Positions 1 through 63,976 are shown, counted from the whole stretch's first letter. The stretch is 63,976 nt of DNA, filler included, from Neolecta irregularis DAH-3 (GCA_001929475.1; 21 parts of 21 records of this genome joined end to end with filler, not necessarily neighbours in it), one strand, 5' to 3'. The notes: generated from the letters alone by a model not told the origin. A program made the numbers and translations.

Positions 1-799
1 ATGCAGCAGACATAGTGTTGAAGGCTGTGAAGTTGGCTTCAGTGTAGGCAATGAATAATAAATCAAACTAGCTAGGCGTTAATTACTGAAACTGACGGTA
101 TATGGAAGAGATCTCAAGTCCGAGGGAATCTGTGCAATTGTAAAACTTTACAAACTCCTGAACTCATGCATTTCCGATCTGCATCATTATATGCTTTATT
201 GATATCAATGTGTTGATAACCAGCATCTCACTCATGGTTAAAGAATCCGGGGATGAAGCTTAGCGTAGTGCCTGCCTCGCTGATTCGACGAAGATTCAGA
301 TCGACAGCTTTTAGAAAATGGACAATGAAGCTCGATTATCAGTTAAACTGACGAAACGAATAATGCGCAATGACTCACCGATCATTTGTAATCGTATGTG
401 TTGGTATGCAGATATATAGAAACCCATATATTCCTTCGGCGGGAATGGTAAATTCGAAGACCCCAATGAGAATCCCTGAATATGATTCGATGGGATATTA
501 ATGGATTTGCTTCAGTGAAGAGCGACCAGAGAGCGCTTGATCGAGAAAAGAGTCTAGGACTTTTCGCTCATCTAATGCCCTGCGTCTGGAATGGGCGAAT
601 GCAGCTACTAGAGATCGTGTTCATGGCACCTACACTTACACATGAATTTTCCTATACAATCATTTATAGACTATTGGAATATATTCGAACCTATATTCGG
701 GCTAACCTTGAAGATTGACTTTCTCGCAGTAAACCTCTGCATGTCTCCATATTCGAGATAGCCCCATTTGACTCTCTTTATTCAACCCGCTCACTCACA

Positions 800-3090
800 A
801 TGACCCGTCCCCAGAAATCGCATGCCGCTCAAAACGCCCGCGCGTTGCGGAGACGGATGGATGGAGACGGCGATCTCAAAATGTTGGGCGAAGGTCCCGG
901 GCTCGCTGCGAGATTGTATTAATCACCTTTCTCTGCTACTAGTGTCTCAGTTTTCAGTGCTCCATACTCTGGCAAAGGCAAACGTAGTGGTGGAAAGGCA
1001 CCTCCCATGTTGAATCAGGTTGATCTGGTTGTACGTCTGAATTCTACAAGAACAAGTATTCAAATTTCAGGTCACTGGTCACGAAGGAGCACCCGAAGAC
1101 GACTTTCGAAAATTCATCTTTCGAAAATCACAAGCGAGAATTTCAAATGTATCGCATGTTTGTTCTGATCGATTGATTCTGACTATAATTAGCTTCGAAC
1201 CGAGGGTTCACGACTTATTTTCTCAGTTTCAGAATCAAATAAAGGTCGAGTTTTAACACTCAACGGTGTGAAATTCGCTGGTGATACAGTAATCCCGCCT
1301 TGTTGCAGGAATTGAAGTAGCAAGATAACCGTTAGATCACAATCGTTCCAAACACTCCATACACTACAACCACTCCTGAACAAGCTGCTAAAACTCTTGA
1401 CTTAAAGGCTACTTTTGAAGCGTTTCTTGCTTCGAGATATCACCCCGAGACCAAGTTTCTGAATCTCTCGGCACTGAGTCAGGAGGCAGGGTTGAGAGAA
1501 AAGGGGTTATTTACTACAATGGAGAAAAGTAGTAAGATGTTTCTGGCAATGATGACCATTGCGGAGAAACATCTTGGAGATGTACGCATACACATATCAG
1601 TTAGGGCTATTCATTTATTTCCCAGGTTCATTCAGTCGACTTATCCAACAATGGACTCGTTGAACTTCGTGGCATCTCAATACTCTCTCAGTCCTACCCT
1701 TCTCTCAAAAATCTGAGTTTAGAGAACAATAAACTCGATGCTGTAGAGAAACTAGATGTTTGGTTCTCTCGTTCCAAGTTTCCTGCTTTAGTAGAACTAG
1801 TGCTTCGAGGAAACCCATTTGTTGGAAAGATGTCTGGAGAAGAGTATCAAAAGTAATTTTCTTTCTTGAAAATCTCTTTGATTTTTCTAGATCTATTCTG
1901 AAACGATTCCCAAGTTTGATCTTGCTCGATGGAATCACAATTCAGACAGATGATATCGGTCCCAATCAGCCAAGTATGTTTGAATCGGAGGAACTTCAAA
2001 CTCAAGTCATGGCCTTTCTTGGAGCGCATGGTTTGTCGATTGCATTCGCTGATTAGTAGATACTTTTCTGCATTTGATAATAATCGCGAAAATGTCCATG
2101 AGATATATACTCCCGAAGCGTGTTTCAGCATCTCTGTGAATACTTCAACAAGATCACGGGATACTGGAAATTTTCATTCCAAAGGCAACTGGTATAAATG
2201 GACACGGTCGAGTAGAAATTTGGACAAAGTTGTGAAAGATGGTATGTTGAATTTCTCTTCTTGTGAATCAAGAGAATTGGTGCACGCTGCAATCTGATCG
2301 GAATGTTTGTGTCTCAACGGCATTGGCCGACAATGTTTGAAATCACTTCAACTCTGCTCTTTCGACTAATCGAACCATATTGACTGCATTCGTTTATTCT
2401 TTGTGGTGCCACCTTTTTTTCGCATACGATTACTAAGAGTAGTGTTATTATTTCACAAACAGGAATACATCAATCTTGTTTATGCCCGTACAAGGAGCAA
2501 ACTTACCGTTGCCGAAGACAAATATTTTGGTTAAAGATATTGTCATCTGCGTCAATTTCTGTCTTTTTTTATCAAATTGCACTAATATTTTTATAGATCA
2601 TCGAATCACCAAGCTAAACACGACGCCAGACCAAATCTCTCGGATATTCAAATTATTGCCGAAGACTATTCATGATTTATCTAATCCTCATCTTTTTTCA
2701 ATACAGGCTTGGACGATCAATGAGGGCGTCCATGTCACAATATCTGGAGAATTCACTGATCCTGAGTACAATATAAAACGCAGTTTTGATCGGTCATTGC
2801 TTCTTGTTGGCCCGACTCCTCAGTGTACTGCACTGGGAGTTGCCGCAGCCATTCGAAATGATCTACTTACCGTCCGAAGTTACTCTGGGAATCTTTACCT
2901 TGAGTATATCCAGAAACTCAAGAGTCAGACTAAACTGAACGATTTATGGGCGAAATTGTGCTTGGAACAAAGTCAGTGGCAATTCCATGTTGCTGTTGAG
3001 AATTTTAATCGGGAACGGGTATGTAAAAATTTTGGATTTGAAGAGTTTACTCATTAGCCGAATATCCCGGTTGACGCATTTACCGACTGA
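800..3090 (+). CDS. MEX67: mRNA export factor Mex67/NXF1 (LRR, NTF2-like and TAP-C/UBA domains), multi-intron
   Basis: The spliced reading gives MTRPQKS..., an LRR (SKMFLAMM, ELVLRGNP, KRFPSLILLDG), an NTF2-like domain (YFSAFDNNRE..YTPEACFSISVN, SGEFTDP..RSFDRSLLLV) and TAP-C (LKSQTKLNDLWAKLCLEQSQW..PVDAF). Confidence 0.92.
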
Positions 3091-3858
3091 TTACGATTTA
3101 TTTTTTCCCTTGTATATACGTGGTTTGGGTATTTAGATGAAACTGCGTCTGGTCAAGTGTAAGATGTTCGATTTATAATGTGTTGCGATATCTATCCATG
3201 TGAAACGTATCATCAGGGCAATATAAGGTATAGCGCATGGGTTACTCTCCGCATTAGAGTAGACCTCAAACGCCGAATGGATAAGCGGCTGGGTGGTATA
3301 GTTCGATCCAATGCGTCTAATCACATCAACACACAGTCGATACGACTGGTTGTTGGTTCGGATTGTCCCTTCCCCTACAAATAGACCTATGGAGGGGTCT
3401 AGAACACACATTTTCCCTGGTTCGATCTCGGTTTGTTAGGTCTAGGTATTATACATGCCGATTTAGCAAAAATATATATTTTAAAAGAAGTTTTAATTGG
3501 GTGTGTGCTGGAATGGCAAAGTGAAAGTGTGTTTGTGATATGCTGGTAAGAGATAATTGACGTCGATCGATTACGTGGACATATGGGAGGGCGAGGCGAA
3601 AGCTGGGCGTGGCGGCCGGCAGTGAGCCAGTTAGTTTTAATGGACTGGGTACGGCTGGGCGGCCTTCTGTGTGTATGGTGGTGAGCGGTGTTTCATGGAG
3701 CGGTGTAGCTAGAGACGGGACGGCTTGGGAAAAAGAGGACTGGGTCCGGCGGCGGGGGAAGCTCTGGGGGAAGGGCGGGCTGCCAGGACTGGCGGGGGGC
3801 AGCAGGGCGCGGCGTGTTTGGGTCAACACCGCCGCCGCTCACCACCTGGGCTCCCGCT

Positions 3859-3958
3859 NNNNNNNNNNNNNNNNNNNNNNNNNNNNNNNNNNNNNNNNNN
3901 NNTTAATTAATTAANNNNNNNNNNNNNNNNNNNNNNNNNNNNNNNNNNNNNNNNNNNN
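3859..3958. other. Artificial contig linker N44-TTAATTAATTAA-N44. This is the first of 20; the others start at 6049, 7800, 10026, 11345, 12559, 19543, 23119, 26263, 29393, 35269, 37464, 41996, 45191, 52804, 53988, 56542, 57780, 59461 and 62677.
   Basis: An identical 100-nt spacer with stop codons in all six frames separates unrelated sequences. Confidence 0.98.
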
Positions 3959-4185
3959 CCCCAGCCACCATAAAAGATATCATATTCTTTCATAGTGGCT
4001 GGTGAAGTTACCCTCAAGAGTTTTGGAACAAATATTTGGATATTTGGATGAAAATGGTGGCTACTGAGCACAAAGAAAACGTTGGAATTGAACGTGGCGC
4101 AAAACGCCACGTTCAATTGAAATTTGTCAAAATTACCTAATATCATGATATTTGGGTCAAAATGGTGGCTGGCAAAGGCACCCTA
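3959..4185 (-). mobile_element. hAT-like DNA transposon terminus with CCAGCCACCAT subterminal motifs
   Basis: The reverse complement TAGGGTGCCTTTGCCAGCCACCATTTTGACCCAAATATCATG matches CAGGGTGGGTTCGCCAGCCACCATATTCGCCCAAATATCATG at 42451. A YAGGG start is typical of hAT TIRs. Confidence 0.55.
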
Positions 4186-4302
4186 AATGTTACACAGCTC
4201 CAGTCGCTCAGATAACTACCGCACGAAGTGCGAATGAGGGACGACATCTGTTCAGCAGGAAGCATAAATAATTCCAACCTCATCCACCATCTTGTTGCCA
4301 CC

Positions 4303-5019
4303 ATGGCGTTTCAATTCTCTAAACTCTGGTTCAGTCTTTCCATCGAAATGAGATGGAAAATTCTCAGTAACCTCTCTCGTAATGAGATTTTTGCAATCCC
4401 TGATCCAATCACGATTAGACAATATATTGTGTATCAAGAAAGAACTTACGAGATTTTCAATAAGGAACTATACACAAAATTTGCCAAGAATGACCATCAA
4501 TGGGTTTATAATAACCTTTCAAGGCTCAACAAGTGTCTTATTATGGCTGAAAGACTGGGCTTTCGGGGGTTCTTGACCGCTCGTGTCATGGATTATTTGT
4601 GGAATCACGGCAAACGAATTCTCATCAACGGGAACAAAAGTCTTCCAGATGAAGTCTTTCATATCCTACTCCGCCTACCAATGGTAGTCTCAAGAACTTT
4701 TGATATTCATCTTATTGGGGTTATCGGTCTGCTTGTCGATGCAGGTTCATTGACACAAGCCAATCTCTTATTGCATGCATGCTACGAAAACTGGGCACCG
4801 GAAGATTGGCGAAGAGGTTTTCAATATACCCTTCAAGAATGTGTGGTTACAAGTATCCAGAAAAACCACAAAAGTGCAGACGTTGCCGCAGTTGAGATGC
4901 TGGAGGAGATGCAAGGTATTCTACGAGATGTCACGCCTGCTCGTTGTTCAGTAGACGGACGTGTAAATGTGTTTGTAGGACTACCTATATGGATGAAACG
5001 GGTCCAGGTTCCTGTATAA
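4303..5019 (+). CDS. Intronless hypothetical protein with an F-box-like N-terminus
   Basis: ATG in GCCACCATGG context. FSKLWFSLSIEMRWKILSNL resembles the F-box LxxLPxE..xI..L pattern. Confidence 0.5.
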   Translation: MAFQFSKLWFSLSIEMRWKILSNLSRNEIFAIPDPITIRQYIVYQERTYEIFNKELYTKFAKNDHQWVYNNLSRLNKCLIMAERLGFRGFLTARVMDYLWNHGKRILINGNKSLPDEVFHILLRLPMVVSRTFDIHLIGVIGLLVDAGSLTQANLLLHACYENWAPEDWRRGFQYTLQECVVTSIQKNHKSADVAAVEMLEEMQGILRDVTPARCSVDGRVNVFVGLPIWMKRVQVPV

Positions 5020-5200
5020 AAGTGTTTTGGTAAAAAAAGAGTATATGTTGAGCATACAGCCAAGGGTTCGGTGCAGCCGCCTTCGGCAATTCGTCTGCCG
5101 CAGCCGAAGCCGCACGCCGAAATCTAGACCGCCACCGACGCCCAGCCCCGGGTCTGGGCCGCCTTCAAAAACGCCTCTATCGCTGCTGCTTGGCGCCATC

Positions 5201-5779
5201 ATGCCCACCGACCGCCCTGCCTTCATGGGTGCTTTTCCGCGATTTTCCCAGGTTCGCTACTCCATCCTGCAGGCCGGAAGTCTAGCATCCGCCGCCGCAG
5301 AAAATGCCTTTCGTTTCCATAAACACTTGATCCGGGGCGAGCTGGACAAAGCGGTTCTCGAATGTCACCCCGATTTCGTGGTCGAGGAATCTCCGGGACT
5401 TCCATACGATAAACAGTACTACGAAGGGCTTGCTGGTTTGCAGGAGCTGCTGCTAAACATGGCGGCCTGCATGGAAATGAATGATACGCGCGTCGAAGTC
5501 TTCCCCGTTAGTGAAGAACTTGTATTCATTGCCTGGAACGCGAAATGTACGACAAAGCAAACGAATCAAACATTCAATCTTGATCTCATCAACAAGCTCG
5601 ACTTCAGAGACAATAAAATCATCAAGATCAAAAGCTACTATTTAAATCAAAGTGAACTTCTTTTGGACGAAATGGTTGCGCGCCAAGGCATGACACCTCT
5701 CATACAGGCCAAAATGAAGCATTGCCGTGAGAAGATCGAAGAGGGTAAAACCTATCTCCAAAATCTTGCTACGGAATAA
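5201..5779 (+). CDS. SnoaL-like/ketosteroid-isomerase-like (NTF2 fold) protein, intronless
   Basis: RGELDKAVLECHPDFVVEESPGLPY..YEGLAGL and LDFRDNKIIKIKSYY follow the SnoaL_2 pattern. The start codon is uncertain. Confidence 0.7.
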   Translation: MPTDRPAFMGAFPRFSQVRYSILQAGSLASAAAENAFRFHKHLIRGELDKAVLECHPDFVVEESPGLPYDKQYYEGLAGLQELLLNMAACMEMNDTRVEVFPVSEELVFIAWNAKCTTKQTNQTFNLDLINKLDFRDNKIIKIKSYYLNQSELLLDEMVARQGMTPLIQAKMKHCREKIEEGKTYLQNLATE

Positions 5780-5884
5780 TTTTTATTCATATGATCTGGC
5801 GTTCTGTATTCTTTTCGGAGCAGACTCGTTCAAAAAGTTATTATTGTGTATCATTTTCATATTTTCTTTTCGTACTTTTGTATT

Positions 5885-6048
5885 GTAAGTATTGAAGCCC
5901 AGATACGAATAAGACTAGGTTATATTGTTTCTAGCCTAAGTATTGGTGACTTTCGCAGGACATACCTAGCCTAAGTATTGGTGACTTGGCTAGGTATGAA
6001 CCGCCTATCTATATTATATAATACAATTTTAATTGCCGCAATATTATT
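5885..6048 (-). mobile_element. LTR remnant, family C (related to the LTR of the gypsy element at 59561)
   Basis: The reverse complement contains TATAACCTAGTCTTATT and ends CAATACTTACA, as at 51720-51763 and 59585-59625. It has an internal duplication of CTAGCCTAAGTATTGGTGACTT. Confidence 0.55.
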
Positions 6049-9049: not shown

Positions 9050-10025
9050 ATAAAACTGTAAGATACCATGTATCAGATAGGGCTGACTTGTCAGTACTCT
9101 TGGTTGAAGACCTGTATTGCTATGTACCTGACTCGTCAGTACTCTTGGTTGAAAACAAGAGTACTGCCATCATCAGCCTATCTACTTATAGTACAATAAT
9201 GCCGCTAATTAGTGGCTACAGAATATACTGGAAGGTTCTGGTATCTTCCGGGACCTTCTGCCACAAGACCGCATCTGGTGTTCATACTAACCACCAGTGC
9301 ACACTCCTTACAGTCCCCCCCTTGACACGTGAGAGGAGTTCCAATCACTTAGTAATTTCGGTGCGGTTTTGCTCAACTCTGACTTCCGAACCCACCAATC
9401 GTCCTCGGGACTGTATCCTTTCCATCGGACAAGGTACTTATAGCCATTCCCAACTCTTTTCTGGTCGAGAATGGCTTCTAATTCATACTCCCCAGACCCA
9501 TCGGTATAGATTTTCGATGGTCCTGGGACAGGCAGTTCTCACTTAACTGATTCTGCCATTTCGATTTTTCGTTTCAGCCGACTGATGTGGACAACAGGGT
9601 GGATGAGTGATGAAGGTGGTAACTCCAATTCGTAATTAAGATCTGATATTTTTCTTGAGATCTTGAATGGTCCTTCATAACGTACCTGCAGTTTCGGTGG
9701 CAACATTTGCTGTTTCCCATCTGGAATCACCCTTAAGTTTTCTGTTGATAGAAAGACTTTGTCCCCCTCCTGGAATCTGTCCTCTCTCCTATGTTTATCG
9801 GCTTGCACTTTCTGCAAGTCTTGTGCTTTGGAAAGTGCTGCCTGCTCATCTTCAAATATTTTTTGACATGCCGAGGAGAAGTCAGATACCGATGGAGTGG
9901 AACCTCTGTATTTGAGATCTTTCGGTGCCCGTAGGTTATAACCTAAATCCACTTCAAACGGGGTGAAACCTAGGGATGCCGAAACTGAACTGTTGTATGC
10001 AAACTCTGCCATTCCCAGCAAAGTT
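9050..10025 (-). mobile_element. Ty3/gypsy chromovirus 3' end (integrase C-terminus, chromodomain, PPT, start of 3' LTR), family A, degenerate
   Basis: AEFAYNSS..GFTPFE, GPFKI and HPVVHIS (integrase); YELEAILDQKRVGNGYKYLVRWKGYSPEDDWW (chromodomain); PPT AAGGGGGGGAC followed by LTR start TGTAAGGAGTG at 9312; premature TGA at 9539-9541. The lower LTR boundary is uncertain. Confidence 0.9.
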
Positions 10026-38596: not shown

Positions 38597-39083
38597 NNNN
38601 NNNNNNAACTCGATCACAGTGCTACTTAAAGTGTCTTTTGTGTATCATTATTGGTGTTTGGTAAGTTCTAGATTTTTAGCCCAGACCGTGGTTGCCAGTG
38701 TTTCTATGAGTTTGTAGTATCCCGCTTTGTATCGAATAACGCCTACTATGGCTTATTGTCTTTGCAATTCCTTTATTGTTAATGTGTCGCTTGGGTTAAG
38801 AATAAGACTCTTCGGCCTACCGCCTGTCACCCAGACTCAAAATGCCTTTATGGCAGTTGTAGTATTTCCGAACTCCTGGAACATTCTGGGGAAATGACAA
38901 AAATTGTCATTTTGTGCAAAGTTTCCTGCTACACCAAGCTTGTATAAAAACACAAGTTCCGGTAGAAGGGTAAGCAGCTGTGCAATGCCATTGTATCGTG
39001 TCCGGCCAATTTCGTCACCGCCAAAGACTCAATTGCGGCGTTCCCCTGTTGTAAACCTCCCCTCATCTCCTCCATCATCGTCA

Positions 39084-56641: not shown

Positions 56642-57779
56642 TTGATTGTTGATTAAAAGTATTGAAGTATTGAAAACAAAGAATCCATACCACACCACCA
56701 CTATACCGCATTCGGTGTTCATACTAACCACCGAAGCACACTCCTTACAGTCCCCCCCATGAAACGTGAGCGGAGTTCCAATCACTTAGTAATTTGGGAG
56801 CAGTTTTACTCAACTCCGATTTCCTTACCCACGAGTCATCCTCAGTACCATAACCTTTCTACCGAACAAGGTATTTATACCCATTCCCAACTCTTTTCTG
56901 ATTGAGAATGGCCTCTAATTCGTATTCCCCTGAGCCATCACTATAGACTTTTGATGGTCCCGGTGGTGGTAGGTCACGTTTGACTGCCTCCGACATTTCC
57001 GTTTTCCTTTTTAATCATGATACATGTACAACTGGGTGTATACGAGACGAAGGGGGAAGTTCTAGTTCATAGTTTAGCTCTGATAACTTCCTTGATATTT
57101 TGAATGGCCCTTCGTATCTTCCTTGCAGTTTTGGCAGCAATGCTTGCTGTTTCCCATCTGGTATTACTCTCAAGTTCTCTGTTGATAAGAAAACCTCGTC
57201 CCCCTCTTGGAAGCTCTCTTCTCTCCTATGCTTGTCAGCTTGCATCTTCTGAGCTTGTTGGGCTCTCGCCAATGCTGCTTGCGCATCATTGAATATTTTC
57301 TGATATTCCGAAGAGAACTCCATAACTGAGGGGTTCGAACCCCTATATTTGAGGTCCTTGGTTGACTGAGGGTTATAACCTAAGTCAACCTCAAAGGGAG
57401 TATAACCAAGGGATGCCGAAACCGAGCTGTTGTATGCAAATTCTGCTGTCCCCAGCAAGGATAACCAGTCGGCATTCTTTCAGATGAACATTTTTAAATA
57501 ATCTTTGACTACCCTGTTCATCCTTTCCGATAACCCATCTGTCTGTGGGTGATAGGCCGTCAAGAGTTTAATGTCTGTTCCGATTAGTTTCCAAAACTCC
57601 TGCCAGAACTTTGAGTCAAACTGCGGGCCCTGATCCGATATAATTGACTTGGGGATTCCATACAACTAGTAGTACCGGTTAAGGAGTAACTTTGCCAGAT
57701 CTTTTGCTGAACATATTGTTTCCGAAGGCCAAAAGTGACACCTTCGAGTAGCTCTATCCACAACAGTTAAGATCGCATC
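56642..57779 (-). mobile_element. Ty3/gypsy chromovirus 3' end, family A (integrase core, chromodomain, PPT, LTR start at 56749), degenerate
   Basis: GIPKSIISDQGPQF, AYHPQTDGLSERMN and YELEAIL; the same LTR start TGTAAGGAGTG as at 9312; several in-frame stops. Confidence 0.92.
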
Positions 57780-59560: not shown

Positions 59561-62500
59561 CGCCTACAAGCTTAGATTAAGGAAATATAACCTGATCTTA
59601 TTGTACTCGAGCTCCAACACTTACATTTTTTTTACAATCGATCGTAAAAAAGTTTCTACGAAGAAACAGGAAAATATAGTATATTTTCAATAGCACCGAT
59701 ACTAGTGCAGCAAAAGCAACGCAGTAAAGCAACGCAGTATTAGCAACGCAGCAATGTCCACTAAAGTGGAAAGCGAGGCAGAAAGTAGTGAAGCAAGGCC
59801 TTATAGGAGCCTCCCGACACTACCCAAGTTCACAGGAAAAGAGAAATCAATCAAAGTAGCCCAAGCATGGTTGAGCCTGACTCGACGAATAGTGCAACTA
59901 CGTTGCGAAGTTGGGCAGGAATCAAAGACAGCGCTATACTATGAAGTAGCCTGCACACTCACTGACGATGCAACCATTTGGTTCGATACGCAGGCAAAGA
60001 CCATTATTGACCTGGACGATTTTTTCACAAAATTTTCACAAAAATATTTGCGCCACCAGAATGTCGCAGTTACTAGAACCAAATTCGAGGCACTGAAACA
60101 GGGCATAAAAACTGTTTCAGAATATGCGGCCGAATTTGAGGAGTTGTGGCAGCAACTAGATATATCAATATATACGGAACCACTAATGGTACGGAAATTC
60201 GCACACGGACTGAAATGGCAAATCGAGAGCACCTTAAGCGCACATTTAGAGAACATGACATACCTTGAGGAAGTAGTCAATGCAGCCCTCAATGGAGAAG
60301 CAGCATTGAGTCGACGCCCAGGACGTGAAAGTGGGGGAAAAAGTAACTCGCAAACCTCCAACAGAGAGAAAGCCAAACGATACGCAAACAATGAGTGTTA
60401 TATTTGCGCATCCCCTGAACATTTGGCACGAGAATGTCCAAAGAATAGGAATAAATCCTCTGGAAACATAGGACAAAAGGACAAAAGGAGAGATGTTATG
60501 TTAGCTAGCTTAGACGAGGACAATAAAGATGAATTAGCCTGCTCATTCGCCACTACTACACAGCCATCTCGAAAAGTGAGTAGAGGCCTCACAGTTACAT
60601 TAAATATCGCTGGATGTGCTGTAGAAGCATTTTTAGATACTGGAGCAGGTTGCAACCTGATAGCCTCAACAGTAACCGATAAGCTGAGAAATAAGATAGC
60701 GATAAAGAAATTACAACCAGTATTACGATTGTCACAGGCATTGTACGGACATACAGAAGTGATCAAAGAGTATATTGAAGTGCAAGTTTCGATTCCCTCA
60801 ATAAAATTCATATCAAAAGAAAAGATACGATTTCACATTGTTCCTCTCGCCAGATATGAAGCAATTTTAGGAGAACCATTTATGCAAAAGTTTCAAGTGA
60901 AGATATCACCATTTGAAGGTCTCGCAACAATGAACGGTAGTAAAGCAAACATCGTGTCAGCCAGTCCAGGTACGTCAAAAAGCATAGTAGCAAAACCGTC
61001 CCAGCAGATCATATATGTTCAGAACGCAACACCTGAAGGCATTGTCAGTATAGATCAAGATGAAGAGAACCTACAGAAACGGTTCTCAGAATTGGAAAAA
61101 AGCTATCGCAAACGTTTTTCAAAGGTATTTGAAGTAACCGATTCACCCAAGCTACCACCAAAGGATGCACCTAAGCACCATATTAATTTTGTAAAGACTC
61201 CAACAGAGCCAATTAATGGCCGGTTATTCCATATACCTCACAAATGGAAAGATGAATTGAAAGAATTTCTACATAGAGGCGTGGCATCAGGACGAATTAG
61301 ACCATCCTCAAGCCAATATTCATCATCGACATATATGCTATCCAAGAAGGATGATGAAGCAGCTCCAAGAGTGGTTCATGACTATATAAAGATTAATGAT
61401 TACACAGTTAAGGACCGTACACCCATACCAATCCAAAATGATCTGCTTGAGGCAGCAGCAAATGCAAAAATTAAAGGAAAGATAGACTTAAAAGATGCAT
61501 ACTATCAGATACGGGTCCATGAGCCAGACATTTACAAAACCTCATTCAAAACACCATATGGACTTTTTGAGTGGGTTGTTATGCCACAGGGACTTTGTAA
61601 CGCCCCAGCAACATTTCAACGGTATATGAACTACTTGTTGAGATCATATAATGGATCCTGTTGCTATGTATATCTTGATGATATCATAGTATTTTCAGAC
61701 TCAGTGGAAGATCACAAAACTAATATATCTAATATATTAAACGTATTACAAGACGCCGAGATCACAGTAAGTCCAAAAAAGTCAGTTCTCTTTGCATCAG
61801 AGATTGACTTCTTGGGCCACAGACTTACTAAAAGAGGTCTTGAACCAGATATAACCAAAACGGACAAAATCGAACATTGGAAACGTCCAACAACAGGCAA
61901 AGCAGTATCAAGATTCTTAGGATTAATTAACTATTTGGCACCATTTATACCAGGATTAGCAGAACATGCAGTAGTATTATCAAGGCTAACAAAGAAAAAC
62001 GTTCCCTTTCGATGGACCAGTGTGGAAAGTAATGCATTCAGTAACCTGAAGCAACTAGTATCGCAAATGAACTACCTAAGGCCTGTAGACCATCGTCGAT
62101 TGAACCAGGGCGAGACAATATGGGTAGTTTGCGATGCAAGTGATCATGGAAGCGGCGCTGTCATATCTCAAGGAGTAAAGTGGCAGGAAGCACAACCAGC
62201 ATCCTTCTACTCCAAATCATTCAGTGAGGCTGAATCAAAATATGCAATATATGATAGAGAGATGTTAGCAGTAGTTCGAGCATTACGGAAATGGCGACAC
62301 CTACTCTTGGGCTACAAATTCACAGTTCTGACGGACCATGAGCCACTAAAACACTGGCATAAACAGAAGAGCCTATCCAACCGCCAAACCCGATGGCTAT
62401 TAGAACTCACTGACTATGATTTCGAGATTGTGTATATCCCAGGATCAAGCAACACATTCGCGGATGCCCTATCACGAACAGAGGCATCAATAGCAACGGC

Positions 62501-62676
62501 AACCATAACAGAGACTATTTTAACAGAAGACGAAATAGTCTTATTAACAGAAGAATATACACAGGACACATTTATACAGAAGATCCGAGACAATCCAGAA
62601 AGATATAAATTCTTTGAAACCAAAGATAGCTACGTTTACTACAGAGATCGCATATTAATCCCAAAAGGAACCTTTC
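59561..62676 (+). mobile_element. Ty3/gypsy LTR retrotransposon, family C: 5' LTR end (to 59625) plus an uninterrupted gag-pol ORF
   Basis: The LTR ends CAACACTTACA and a single ORF follows. Confidence 0.95.
59754..62676 (+). CDS. Gag-Pol polyprotein (capsid, CCHC knuckle, protease, RT, RNase H), 3' truncated
   Basis: LKQGIKTVSEYAAEF, CYICASPEHLAREC, AFLDTGAG, MPQGLCNAPATFQ, VYLDDII, CDASDHG and TDHEPL. Confidence 0.97.
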
Positions 62677-62776: not shown

Positions 62777-62837
62777 CTTCCTCCTTCTCTATCTATTATA
62801 CATGATTATATACCAGTCCCTCCATTAACATATCACA
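62777..62837 (+). mobile_element. End of LTR family B inserted into another gypsy pol
   Basis: Matches 8091-8152 and abuts TISAPLSELTRK of the interrupted pol. Confidence 0.75.
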
Positions 62838-63905
62838 ACGATCAGCGCACCTTTATCAGAGCTTACTCGGAAAGATATCCCCTGGACATGGGGGGTTGAT
62901 CAAGAACAGGCATTTGAAACTCTAAAGGTTAAGCTTACCTCAACCCCTGTATTTGTGCGACACAACCCTGAGAAACCATCAGTACTCACTTGTGATGCTT
63001 CTGGTATAGGAATTGGTGCTGTACTGTCTCAACTAGGGAAGGATCGTCAAGAACATCCTGTGATGTTTATGTCGAAAAAACTCGGCAAGCATCAATGGAA
63101 TTGGACGACACATGATAAGGAGCTATTCGCGATTAAAAAGGCACTTGAGAAATTTTGACCATACATTCATGGGACGAAATTCAAAATTCGAACTGATCAT
63201 CAAGAGTTACAGTATATACTGAAACAGCCGAAGTTAAACACAAAGCAAATCCGAATCCTAGCGTTTATGGCGGAGTTCCCGGAGTTTGTGGTGGAATACT
63301 TACCAGGGGCACTAAACCTGGTATCAGACGCACTATCGCGCAAGCCGAGCTTTGAATGTCAAGCTATCATACTGCAGGAAGACTCTAAGTAGCTAAGTCA
63401 AGTTAGTCAGGAGTTGAAAGATAGTGAGTGGTCCTCAATACTAATGGAACTTCAAAATGGAAGGATTATCCCGGATTTTGAGTTGGAAGACGAGTTGCTA
63501 CTCTGGAACAATCGAATTTGTGTCCCAAAAGGATGGAGATTAGTATTACTCCAGGCTTACCATGACGATCCATCAAGTGGACATCCAGGCCCCAAGAAAA
63601 TGATTGCATTAATGTTATGATGGTTTTATTGGAAGAAGATGTCAGCACAAGTTACGGACTTCTGCAACTCATGCTCACAATGTGCACGAGTTAAGGCAGA
63701 TACTCGTGGGAAGTTAGGTCTCTTAAATCCATTAGACTTACCCGATTCGCGATGGACTGATATTATGATGGATTTTATCACTGGCCTCCCAGCTAGTGAT
63801 CGCTTTGATGCGATTTGGACGATCGTTGATCGAGGAATGCGGCATTGCCATTTTTGGCCTGCTAAGACAACTTGCACTGCAAAGGAATTAGCGGAGTTAA
63901 TGGTA
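62838..63905 (+). mobile_element. Degenerate Ty3/gypsy pol (RNase H, integrase HHCC and start of core)
   Basis: TCDASGIGIGAVLSQ, KELFAI, HDDPSSGHPG..CSQC and IMMDFITGLP, with in-frame stops. Confidence 0.92.
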
Positions 63906-63976
63906 GGGCAATCTGAGACTATAAATCAGTTATCTTGAAGGATTGGGAAGTTCTGTAAAGTTTACCAGGTTCAGCA

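Follow-up and report, generated by a model that had tools for sequence, protein, structure and literature searches.

The mex67 locus

The stretch of DNA analysed here (63,976 nucleotides, referred to below as the window) consists of 21 small contigs of Neolecta irregularis DAH-3 chained by N44-TTAATTAATTAA-N44 linkers. Its first piece (1-3858) carries one gene, mex67, which is interrupted by an intron of 355 nucleotides (nt) at 2242-2596, the subject of this work. The exons of the gene match the Pfam families RRM_9, LRR_NXF1-5, NXF_NTF2 and TAP_C, and a public protein, P0001 (479 aa), named mRNA export factor mex67 of Neolecta irregularis DAH-3, matches it at 100% identity; judged from these matches, the gene at 1007-3090 is the NXF1 orthologue mex67.

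The gene model was built with contigs from two sequencing runs of one study, X1 and X2, both recorded as 'DNA?'. The X1 contigs were colinear with the DNA, whereas the X2 contigs skipped nine GT/GC..AG segments of the + strand. None of these nine joints was present in X1, indicating that X2 behaves as cDNA despite its recorded kind. The genome paper (PMC5309816) states in its main text that both DNA and RNA of fruiting bodies were sequenced, and introns and splicing are not mentioned there. For the introns other than the 355-nt one and a nested one described below, the X2 contigs contained only the joined forms, and the X2 bin depths fit zero cover in the short introns (for example, 84.4 = 139.5 x 78/129 for bin 1033-1161). 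The gene was resolved as follows:

1007..3090, + strand: mex67 coding region, with a tentative start at ATG 1007 and its stop codon at 3088-3090 (X2 RNA contigs, Pfam, protein alignment)
1030/1071, 1148/1193, 1288/1336, 1581/1626, 1852/1891, 2025/2060, 2241/2597 and 3018/3058, + strand: exon joints of mex67 (X2 contigs)
1031-1070 (40 nt), 1149-1192 (44 nt) and 1289-1335 (47 nt), + strand: first three introns (X2 contigs)
1582-1625 (44 nt) and 1853-1890 (38 nt), + strand: next two introns (X2 contigs)
2026-2059 (34 nt), + strand: intron with GC..AG ends (X2 contigs)
3019-3057 (39 nt), + strand: last intron (X2 contigs)

The 355-nt intron

An X2 contig joined 2241 to 2597 (listed as 2240>2596), and this joint was absent from the DNA run X1. 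The intron so defined has these features:

2242..2596, + strand: long intron (355 nt, GT..AG), phase 1, in the NTF2-like domain (X2 joint, Pfam profile continuity)
2242-2247, 2581-2586 and 2594-2596, + strand: its donor GTATGT, branch-like ACTAAT and terminal TAG (sequence)

The flanking exons correspond to positions 9-62 and 68-158 of the NXF_NTF2 profile in Pfam, indicating that no exon is hidden inside the intron, and the upstream exon aligned to residues 289-345 of the 599 of S. cerevisiae Mex67, inside the NTF2-like domain. The intron is 7.5 to 10 times as long as the other eight RNA-supported introns of the gene (34, 37, 38, 39, 40, 44, 44 and 47 nt, that of 37 nt being the nested one), and its branch point lies 11 nt from the 3' splice site. 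An oversized MEX67 intron at 2242-2596 had been proposed in the initial annotation, which was made from the sequence, and the X2 joint, the Pfam continuity and the 34-47 nt of the other introns bear this out. For the rest of the window we used a rough census based on a Pfam scan of 407 stop-to-stop open reading frames (minimum length 50 aa as far as 22.4 kb and 60 aa from there on), which sees only introns that split recognisable domains. All seven domain-split junctions so found (BOP1NT three times; MOZ_SAS, RrnaAD, CTLH and SLS1_C once each) had gaps of about 24-40 nt, and no second long intron was found among them.

Retention of the intron and the nested 37-nt intron

In X2, the 377-nt record 5 spans 2212-2404 and 2442-2625. 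It contains the long intron minus 2406-2442 and extends 30 and 29 letters into the exons flanking it. Two features are added by this contig:

2406..2442, + strand: nested intron (37 nt, GT..AG) with branch-like TACTAAG at 2431-2437 (X2 joint listed as 2404>2442, cut +1; absent from X1)
2295..2297, + strand: TGA in frame on retention, after 18 intron-coded codons (sequence)

The nested joint has GT..AG ends and a TACTAAG, indicating that the retained RNA is of the sense strand and was processed by the spliceosome while it still carried 318 nt of the long intron. It does not represent DNA contamination, since the joint is missing from X1 and X2 shows no cover of the other introns. The long intron is retained in part of the mex67 RNA, with the nested intron cut out. 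The nested intron is missing from the initial annotation. No alternative joint from 2241 into the intron, or from the intron to 2597, was present in the X2 contigs, which can drop rare forms.

The stop lies 18 codons into the intron, so that the retained RNA cannot give full Mex67. The truncation at 2295-2297 had been foreseen in the initial annotation, and it is now accompanied by an intron-retaining contig; the retained form lacks the TAP-C domain together with two thirds of the NTF2-like domain. X2 record 5 is an RNA isoform that keeps the intron and carries a premature stop, as would be expected of regulated unproductive splicing or of a detained intron. An open frame of about 50 codons without a stop, which runs from 2370 over the nested joint and on into the exon that follows and has its first ATG at 2482, was considered and set aside as unremarkable, an internal start being unsupported.

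Predicted fold of the intron

The minimum-energy fold of the 355-nt intron as sense RNA has -80.1 kcal/mol and is a single long hairpin-like structure closed by a long-range stem:

2275..2320, + strand: 5' arm of the stem (minimum-energy fold)
2506..2557, + strand: 3' arm of the stem, including AAGACA at 2515-2520 (minimum-energy fold)

This stem comprises 42 pairs (35 Watson-Crick and 7 G-U) with pair probabilities of 0.4-1.0. The three end-to-end helices named in the initial annotation all occur in the fold: an outer helix 2275-2284/2548-2557 of 10 bp, a core helix 2296-2310/2518-2532 with pair probabilities of 0.9-1.0, and an inner helix 2315-2320/2506-2511 with 0.8-0.9. The small hairpin at 2321-2335, the AAGACA hexamer and the in-frame TGA that it listed were likewise found in place.

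The duplex between the first and the last 100 nt of the intron had -46.0 kcal/mol, compared with -29.7 +/- 4.2 for dinucleotide shuffles, none of 1000 of which was as good. Among natural segment pairs of the window matched for GC (0.33-0.41) and spacing, 1/288 was as good; when all natural segment pairs including GC-rich ones were taken, 245/2132 were, an excess due to the GC-rich parts of the window. The duplex formed by the antisense strand was at chance level (-29.6 kcal/mol). For the stem alone the values were -32.8 kcal/mol for sense and -19.4 for antisense, and its 7 G-U pairs are accompanied by no A-C mismatch. G-U pairs without A-C mismatches would be the pattern given by selection on the sense RNA, unlike that of a DNA inverted repeat in neutral decay. 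In agreement with this, the earlier argument that the G-U pairs favour the sense RNA was upheld by the 7 G-U among 42 pairs and by the difference between strands. The stem is also predicted to persist in the 318-nt retained form, from which the nested intron has been removed.

A proposed zipper stem in an incompletely spliced intron

The reading that best accounts for these results, and to which we give about an even chance of being right, is that of a long intron with a zipper stem which is incompletely spliced and, by way of its nested mini-intron, yields an unproductive mex67 isoform. The sense-specific stem 2275-2320/2506-2557 would loop out the interior of the intron, about 185 nt, and would leave linkers of about 33 nt from the donor to the stem and about 28 nt from the stem to the branch point. 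It would thus act as a zipper that pairs the distant outer splice sites for a machinery used to introns of about 40 nt. Removal of the outer intron is incomplete, and from the RNA that keeps it just the normal-sized 37-nt intron of the interior has been cut; the long intron would in this way lower the yield of productive mex67 mRNA. We infer that the stem may form in vivo and aid splicing at the outer sites, with which removal of the nested intron would compete. The retained form is probably unproductive and may serve as a regulated valve.

Zipper stems of yeast are defined in the methods of PMC12350175 by geometry, with linkers of at least 10 nt and at least 20 nt and a total of 42-85 nt. In the Neolecta intron, 2275 lies 33 nt from 2242 and 2557 lies 28 nt from A2585, a sum of 61 nt. 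When the linkers are counted from the high-probability core 2296-2310/2518-2532 alone, they are 54 and 53 nt, and their sum of 107 nt is beyond 42-85 nt. The same definition also asks for probing data that give high helix confidence over 6 bp or more; the outer helix here has 10 bp and the stem 42 pairs overall, with predicted pair probabilities.

Several observations weigh against this reading. The outer helix, the one that has the zipper geometry, has a pair probability of just 0.4-0.6. The graph distance from the donor to A2585, computed with the donor and branch regions held unpaired, was 47 in the minimum-energy fold and 49.0 +/- 8.8 in shuffles, of which 47/100 were as short; for the ensemble mean, 34/100 shuffles were as short (46/100 in another run). 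Shortening beyond that of random sequence is a functional expectation for zipper stems and no part of their definition. Since shuffles were equally short, the shortening of distance is not special to the long intron: prediction draws together the ends of any sequence of this size. What sets the modelled fold apart is how stable its closing stem is, and not how near it brings donor and branch point. The comparison of folding energy with dinucleotide shuffles, called for in the initial annotation, gave a clear excess for the end-to-end duplex and was borderline for the intron as a whole (z -1.90, 2/100 shuffles as good; z -1.84, 13/300), and the 318-nt retained form as a whole was not significant (z -1.02, 43/300 as good). 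As to retention, the exon overlaps of record 5 (30 and 29 letters) are just below the 31-letter rule for bridging, and the observation rests on one RNA data set, the X2 contigs. The intron-keeping contig confirms that the retained form exists; each X2 contig has a single depth (retained form 160.2, spliced junction 185.3, flanks 139.5 and 270.4), and since these figures are not additive they yield no retention fraction.

Alternative explanations

The intron might instead be a neutral oddity, made or enlarged by a long insertion such as a decayed hairpin-forming or introner-like element, with the stem as a relic, the nested intron cryptic and retention as functionless splicing noise. We grant this a small though appreciable chance. 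The borderline energy of the whole intron and a structural distance no better than that of shuffles are what it would lead one to expect, and splicing by intron definition would by default retain an intron that is far too long. On the other hand, neutral decay should affect both strands alike, and the stem is asymmetric between strands in its G-U pairs, its A-C mismatches and its energy. When the remaining ~62 kb of the window were searched with blastn, no second copy of the intron was found, the best match being of 20 nt (E 0.064). The X1 DNA contig, which spans 37 to 3858, has no break in the intron, and this argues against near-identical copies elsewhere. Both results speak against a repeated element of recent origin.

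Another possibility, which we consider improbable, is that the intron hosts a stable RNA (like a small nucleolar RNA, snoRNA, or another non-coding RNA, or the excised intron itself in stable form) and that this RNA gives most of the cover. The depth of the intron contig is not below that of the upstream exon contig (160.2 and 139.5), figures which cannot rank parts of a gene, and the branch point is just 11 nt from the 3' splice site. A short distance between these two is a trait of stable excised introns of yeast, and stable excised intron RNA may add to the intron cover in X2. Against a stable RNA as the main source, the contig continues into both exons and the nested intron is spliced from the same RNA. 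There is no C box, the intron has a single CTGA, and its ACA triplets are misplaced for an H/ACA RNA. An Rfam scan of 1-6000 at E up to 10 gave four weak matches, none of them in the intron, so the snoRNA explanation that the initial annotation had set up as a possible refutation was not borne out. A snoRNA host of known family was accordingly rejected, with neither an Rfam match nor convincing boxes in the intron; an RNA of a novel kind might still be hosted there.

The initial annotation had favoured an element like the constitutive transport element (CTE) of mammalian NXF1: Mex67 and its partner would recognise the stem and the loop around AAGACA in the intron-retaining RNA of mex67 itself and would export this RNA or alter its fate, and the outcome would be feedback or a short Mex67 protein, as with mammalian NXF1 intron 10. 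In the CTE, a conserved AAGACA occupies the internal loops of a stem, and one Tap-p15 heterodimer binds per unit (PMC4330393, PMC4174252). Such an element agrees with the existence of the retained form in the RNA of X2, with the gene being the NXF1 orthologue, with the control of other export-factor genes, YRA1 and SUS1, through their introns (PMC2864733, PMC4691836), and with the 18 intron-coded residues before the stop, a number equal to that in human sNxf1 (PMC5170612) and probably a coincidence. In the predicted fold, AAGACA also adjoins small internal loops of the long stem. The claim that it sits at an internal loop found little support in the prediction: 4/6 of its bases are paired in the minimum-energy fold, just A2516 and G2517 being unpaired, and its mean unpaired probability is 0.33. 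The hexamer occurs once in the intron, where 0.07-0.09 per 355 nt are expected by chance (over the whole window it occurs 13 times on one strand and 18 times on the other), and the Rfam scan gave no match to any family there. Truncation would place the end of the protein within the NTF2-like fold and not ahead of it. In yeast Mex67 the RRM (RNA recognition motif) region is poorly conserved and failed to bind RNA (PMC4330393), and the authors of PMC4338338 report that their BLAST searches gave no homology to the CTE in birds or reptiles, nor in C. elegans or Drosophila. We therefore regard a CTE-like element as very improbable. The parallel to NXF1 is functional at most, that is, a retained intron in the same gene family, and is unsupported at the level of the element; feedback by Mex67 is a possible extension, attractive but unsupported.

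In a broader version of the idea, self-control by means of a structured intron that is retained would have arisen two or more times among the genes of the Mex67/NXF1 family, in animals (intron 10 with its CTE) and in Neolecta, an early-diverging ascomycete, at different positions, with the stem as the sensor in Neolecta; this too has only a slim chance of being correct. With the stem formed or free, the outer splice sites would be drawn together and productive mRNA made. With the stem bound or unwound by Mex67-Mtr2 or by a helicase of the export pathway, the nested intron alone would be removed, giving mRNA that is unproductive or encodes a short protein.

Finally, a stwintron was rejected, the nested intron 2406-2442 interrupting no outer splice signal and the outer GT, ACTAAT and AG being intact.

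Other features of the locus and the window

The public protein model P0001 of mex67 is wrong. It drops the exon 2060-2241 (61 residues of the NTF2-like domain) and joins ...LGAH to DHRIT... through a 566-nt intron, 2031-2596; the GC donor of the true upstream intron apparently led to the omission of the exon. Upstream, the X2 donor at 1149 (GTATCG) lies 9 nt before the donor implied by P0001 at 1158 and leaves the frame intact minus three residues (VSH); the difference may reflect alternative use of 5' splice sites or a slip in the annotation. In an X2 contig colinear over 690-1030, the first intron of the annotation, 916-956, was unspliced, and when this intron is kept the frame read from the annotated start ATG at 800 stops at 920-922. 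The true start of mex67 may be the ATG at 1007-1009, which immediately precedes the RRM, though rarer forms can be missing from contigs.

An X2 joint at 651-689 has CT..AC ends, those of a minus-strand intron, indicating a spliced antisense transcript just upstream of mex67; no clear open reading frame or Pfam domain was seen for this transcript in the region. At the end of the first contig, 3560-3858 is a GC-rich tract rich in G runs, compared with about 42% GC in mex67, and an X2 contig extends through it.

Elsewhere in the window the following frames were observed:

59706-62675, + strand: open frame of 990 aa with Ty3-type gag, reverse transcriptase (RT) and RNase H domains
9311-10024 (- strand), 57018-57479 (- strand) and 62829-63935 (+ strand): chromo, integrase SH3 or RNase H domains

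Going by their domains, these frames are copies of long terminal repeat retrotransposons, one of which may be intact over gag-RT-RNase H. The linkers between the contigs lie at 3859-3958 and at 19 further places, with one 10-N gap at 38597-38606; across linkers, gene order is no evidence of linkage.

Comparison with known systems

A protein search gave 12 proteins at E up to 1e-10, the best of which besides P0001 itself had 26-34% identity, and a metagenome scan with P0001 matched 81 stretches, none of which was confirmed. A literature search of limited scope found no paper on intron retention in a fungal MEX67 gene. The intron was compared with four systems described in other genes or other organisms.

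Fungal stwintrons (PMC6616335, PMC8469720) resemble the Neolecta intron in that one spliceosomal intron is nested in another. They differ in that the internal intron interrupts the outer donor, branch point or acceptor and must go first, whereas in Neolecta 164 nt separate the nested intron from the outer donor and 139 nt separate it from the outer branch site.

The yeast genes YRA1 and SUS1 (PMC2864733, PMC4691836) share with Neolecta mex67 an atypical or structured intron in an mRNA-export gene, with inefficient splicing that limits the protein. The genes are different, however, and feedback was shown experimentally in yeast, whereas in Neolecta it is a supposition.

Intron 10 of NXF1, with its CTE, in mammals and fish (PMC4338338, PMC5170612) belongs to the orthologous family, and in both cases the retained intron truncates the protein before its pore-binding part, after 18 intron-coded residues, the coincidence noted above. 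The positions are not homologous. Human sNxf1 has 356 residues including 18 from the intron, so that 338 native residues precede it (PMC5170612), and the human NTF2-like fragment starts at residue 372 (PMC4330393); the human intron hence lies before the NTF2-like domain and the Neolecta intron inside it, in line with the independent placement suggested in the initial annotation. The AAGACA of Neolecta, in contrast to that of the CTE, is not in a clear internal loop of the predicted fold. If retention in Neolecta is regulated, mex67 would be a second, independent export-receptor gene under the control of its own retained intron, and a second independent case, if true, would suggest that the dosage of the receptor is under recurrent selective pressure.

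The closest likeness to the zipper-stemmed intron proposed here is to the zipper stems of long S. cerevisiae introns (RPS17B and others; PMC2536676, PMC12350175), in which, as in Neolecta, a segment on the donor side pairs with one on the branch side. The host intron is much longer than the short class, and the Neolecta linkers of 33 and 28 nt are within the published limits. Neolecta differs in belonging to the Taphrinomycotina and in having mex67 introns of about 40 nt. With 42 pairs, its predicted stem is far longer, a spliced intron is nested within it, and the shortening of distance predicted for it is no better than that of shuffles. If the reading is true, the biology of zipper stems would extend from budding yeast to a lineage of very short introns, where the clash of a 355-nt intron with a machinery used to about 40 nt would be extreme and the nested intron of normal size would be a built-in competitor.

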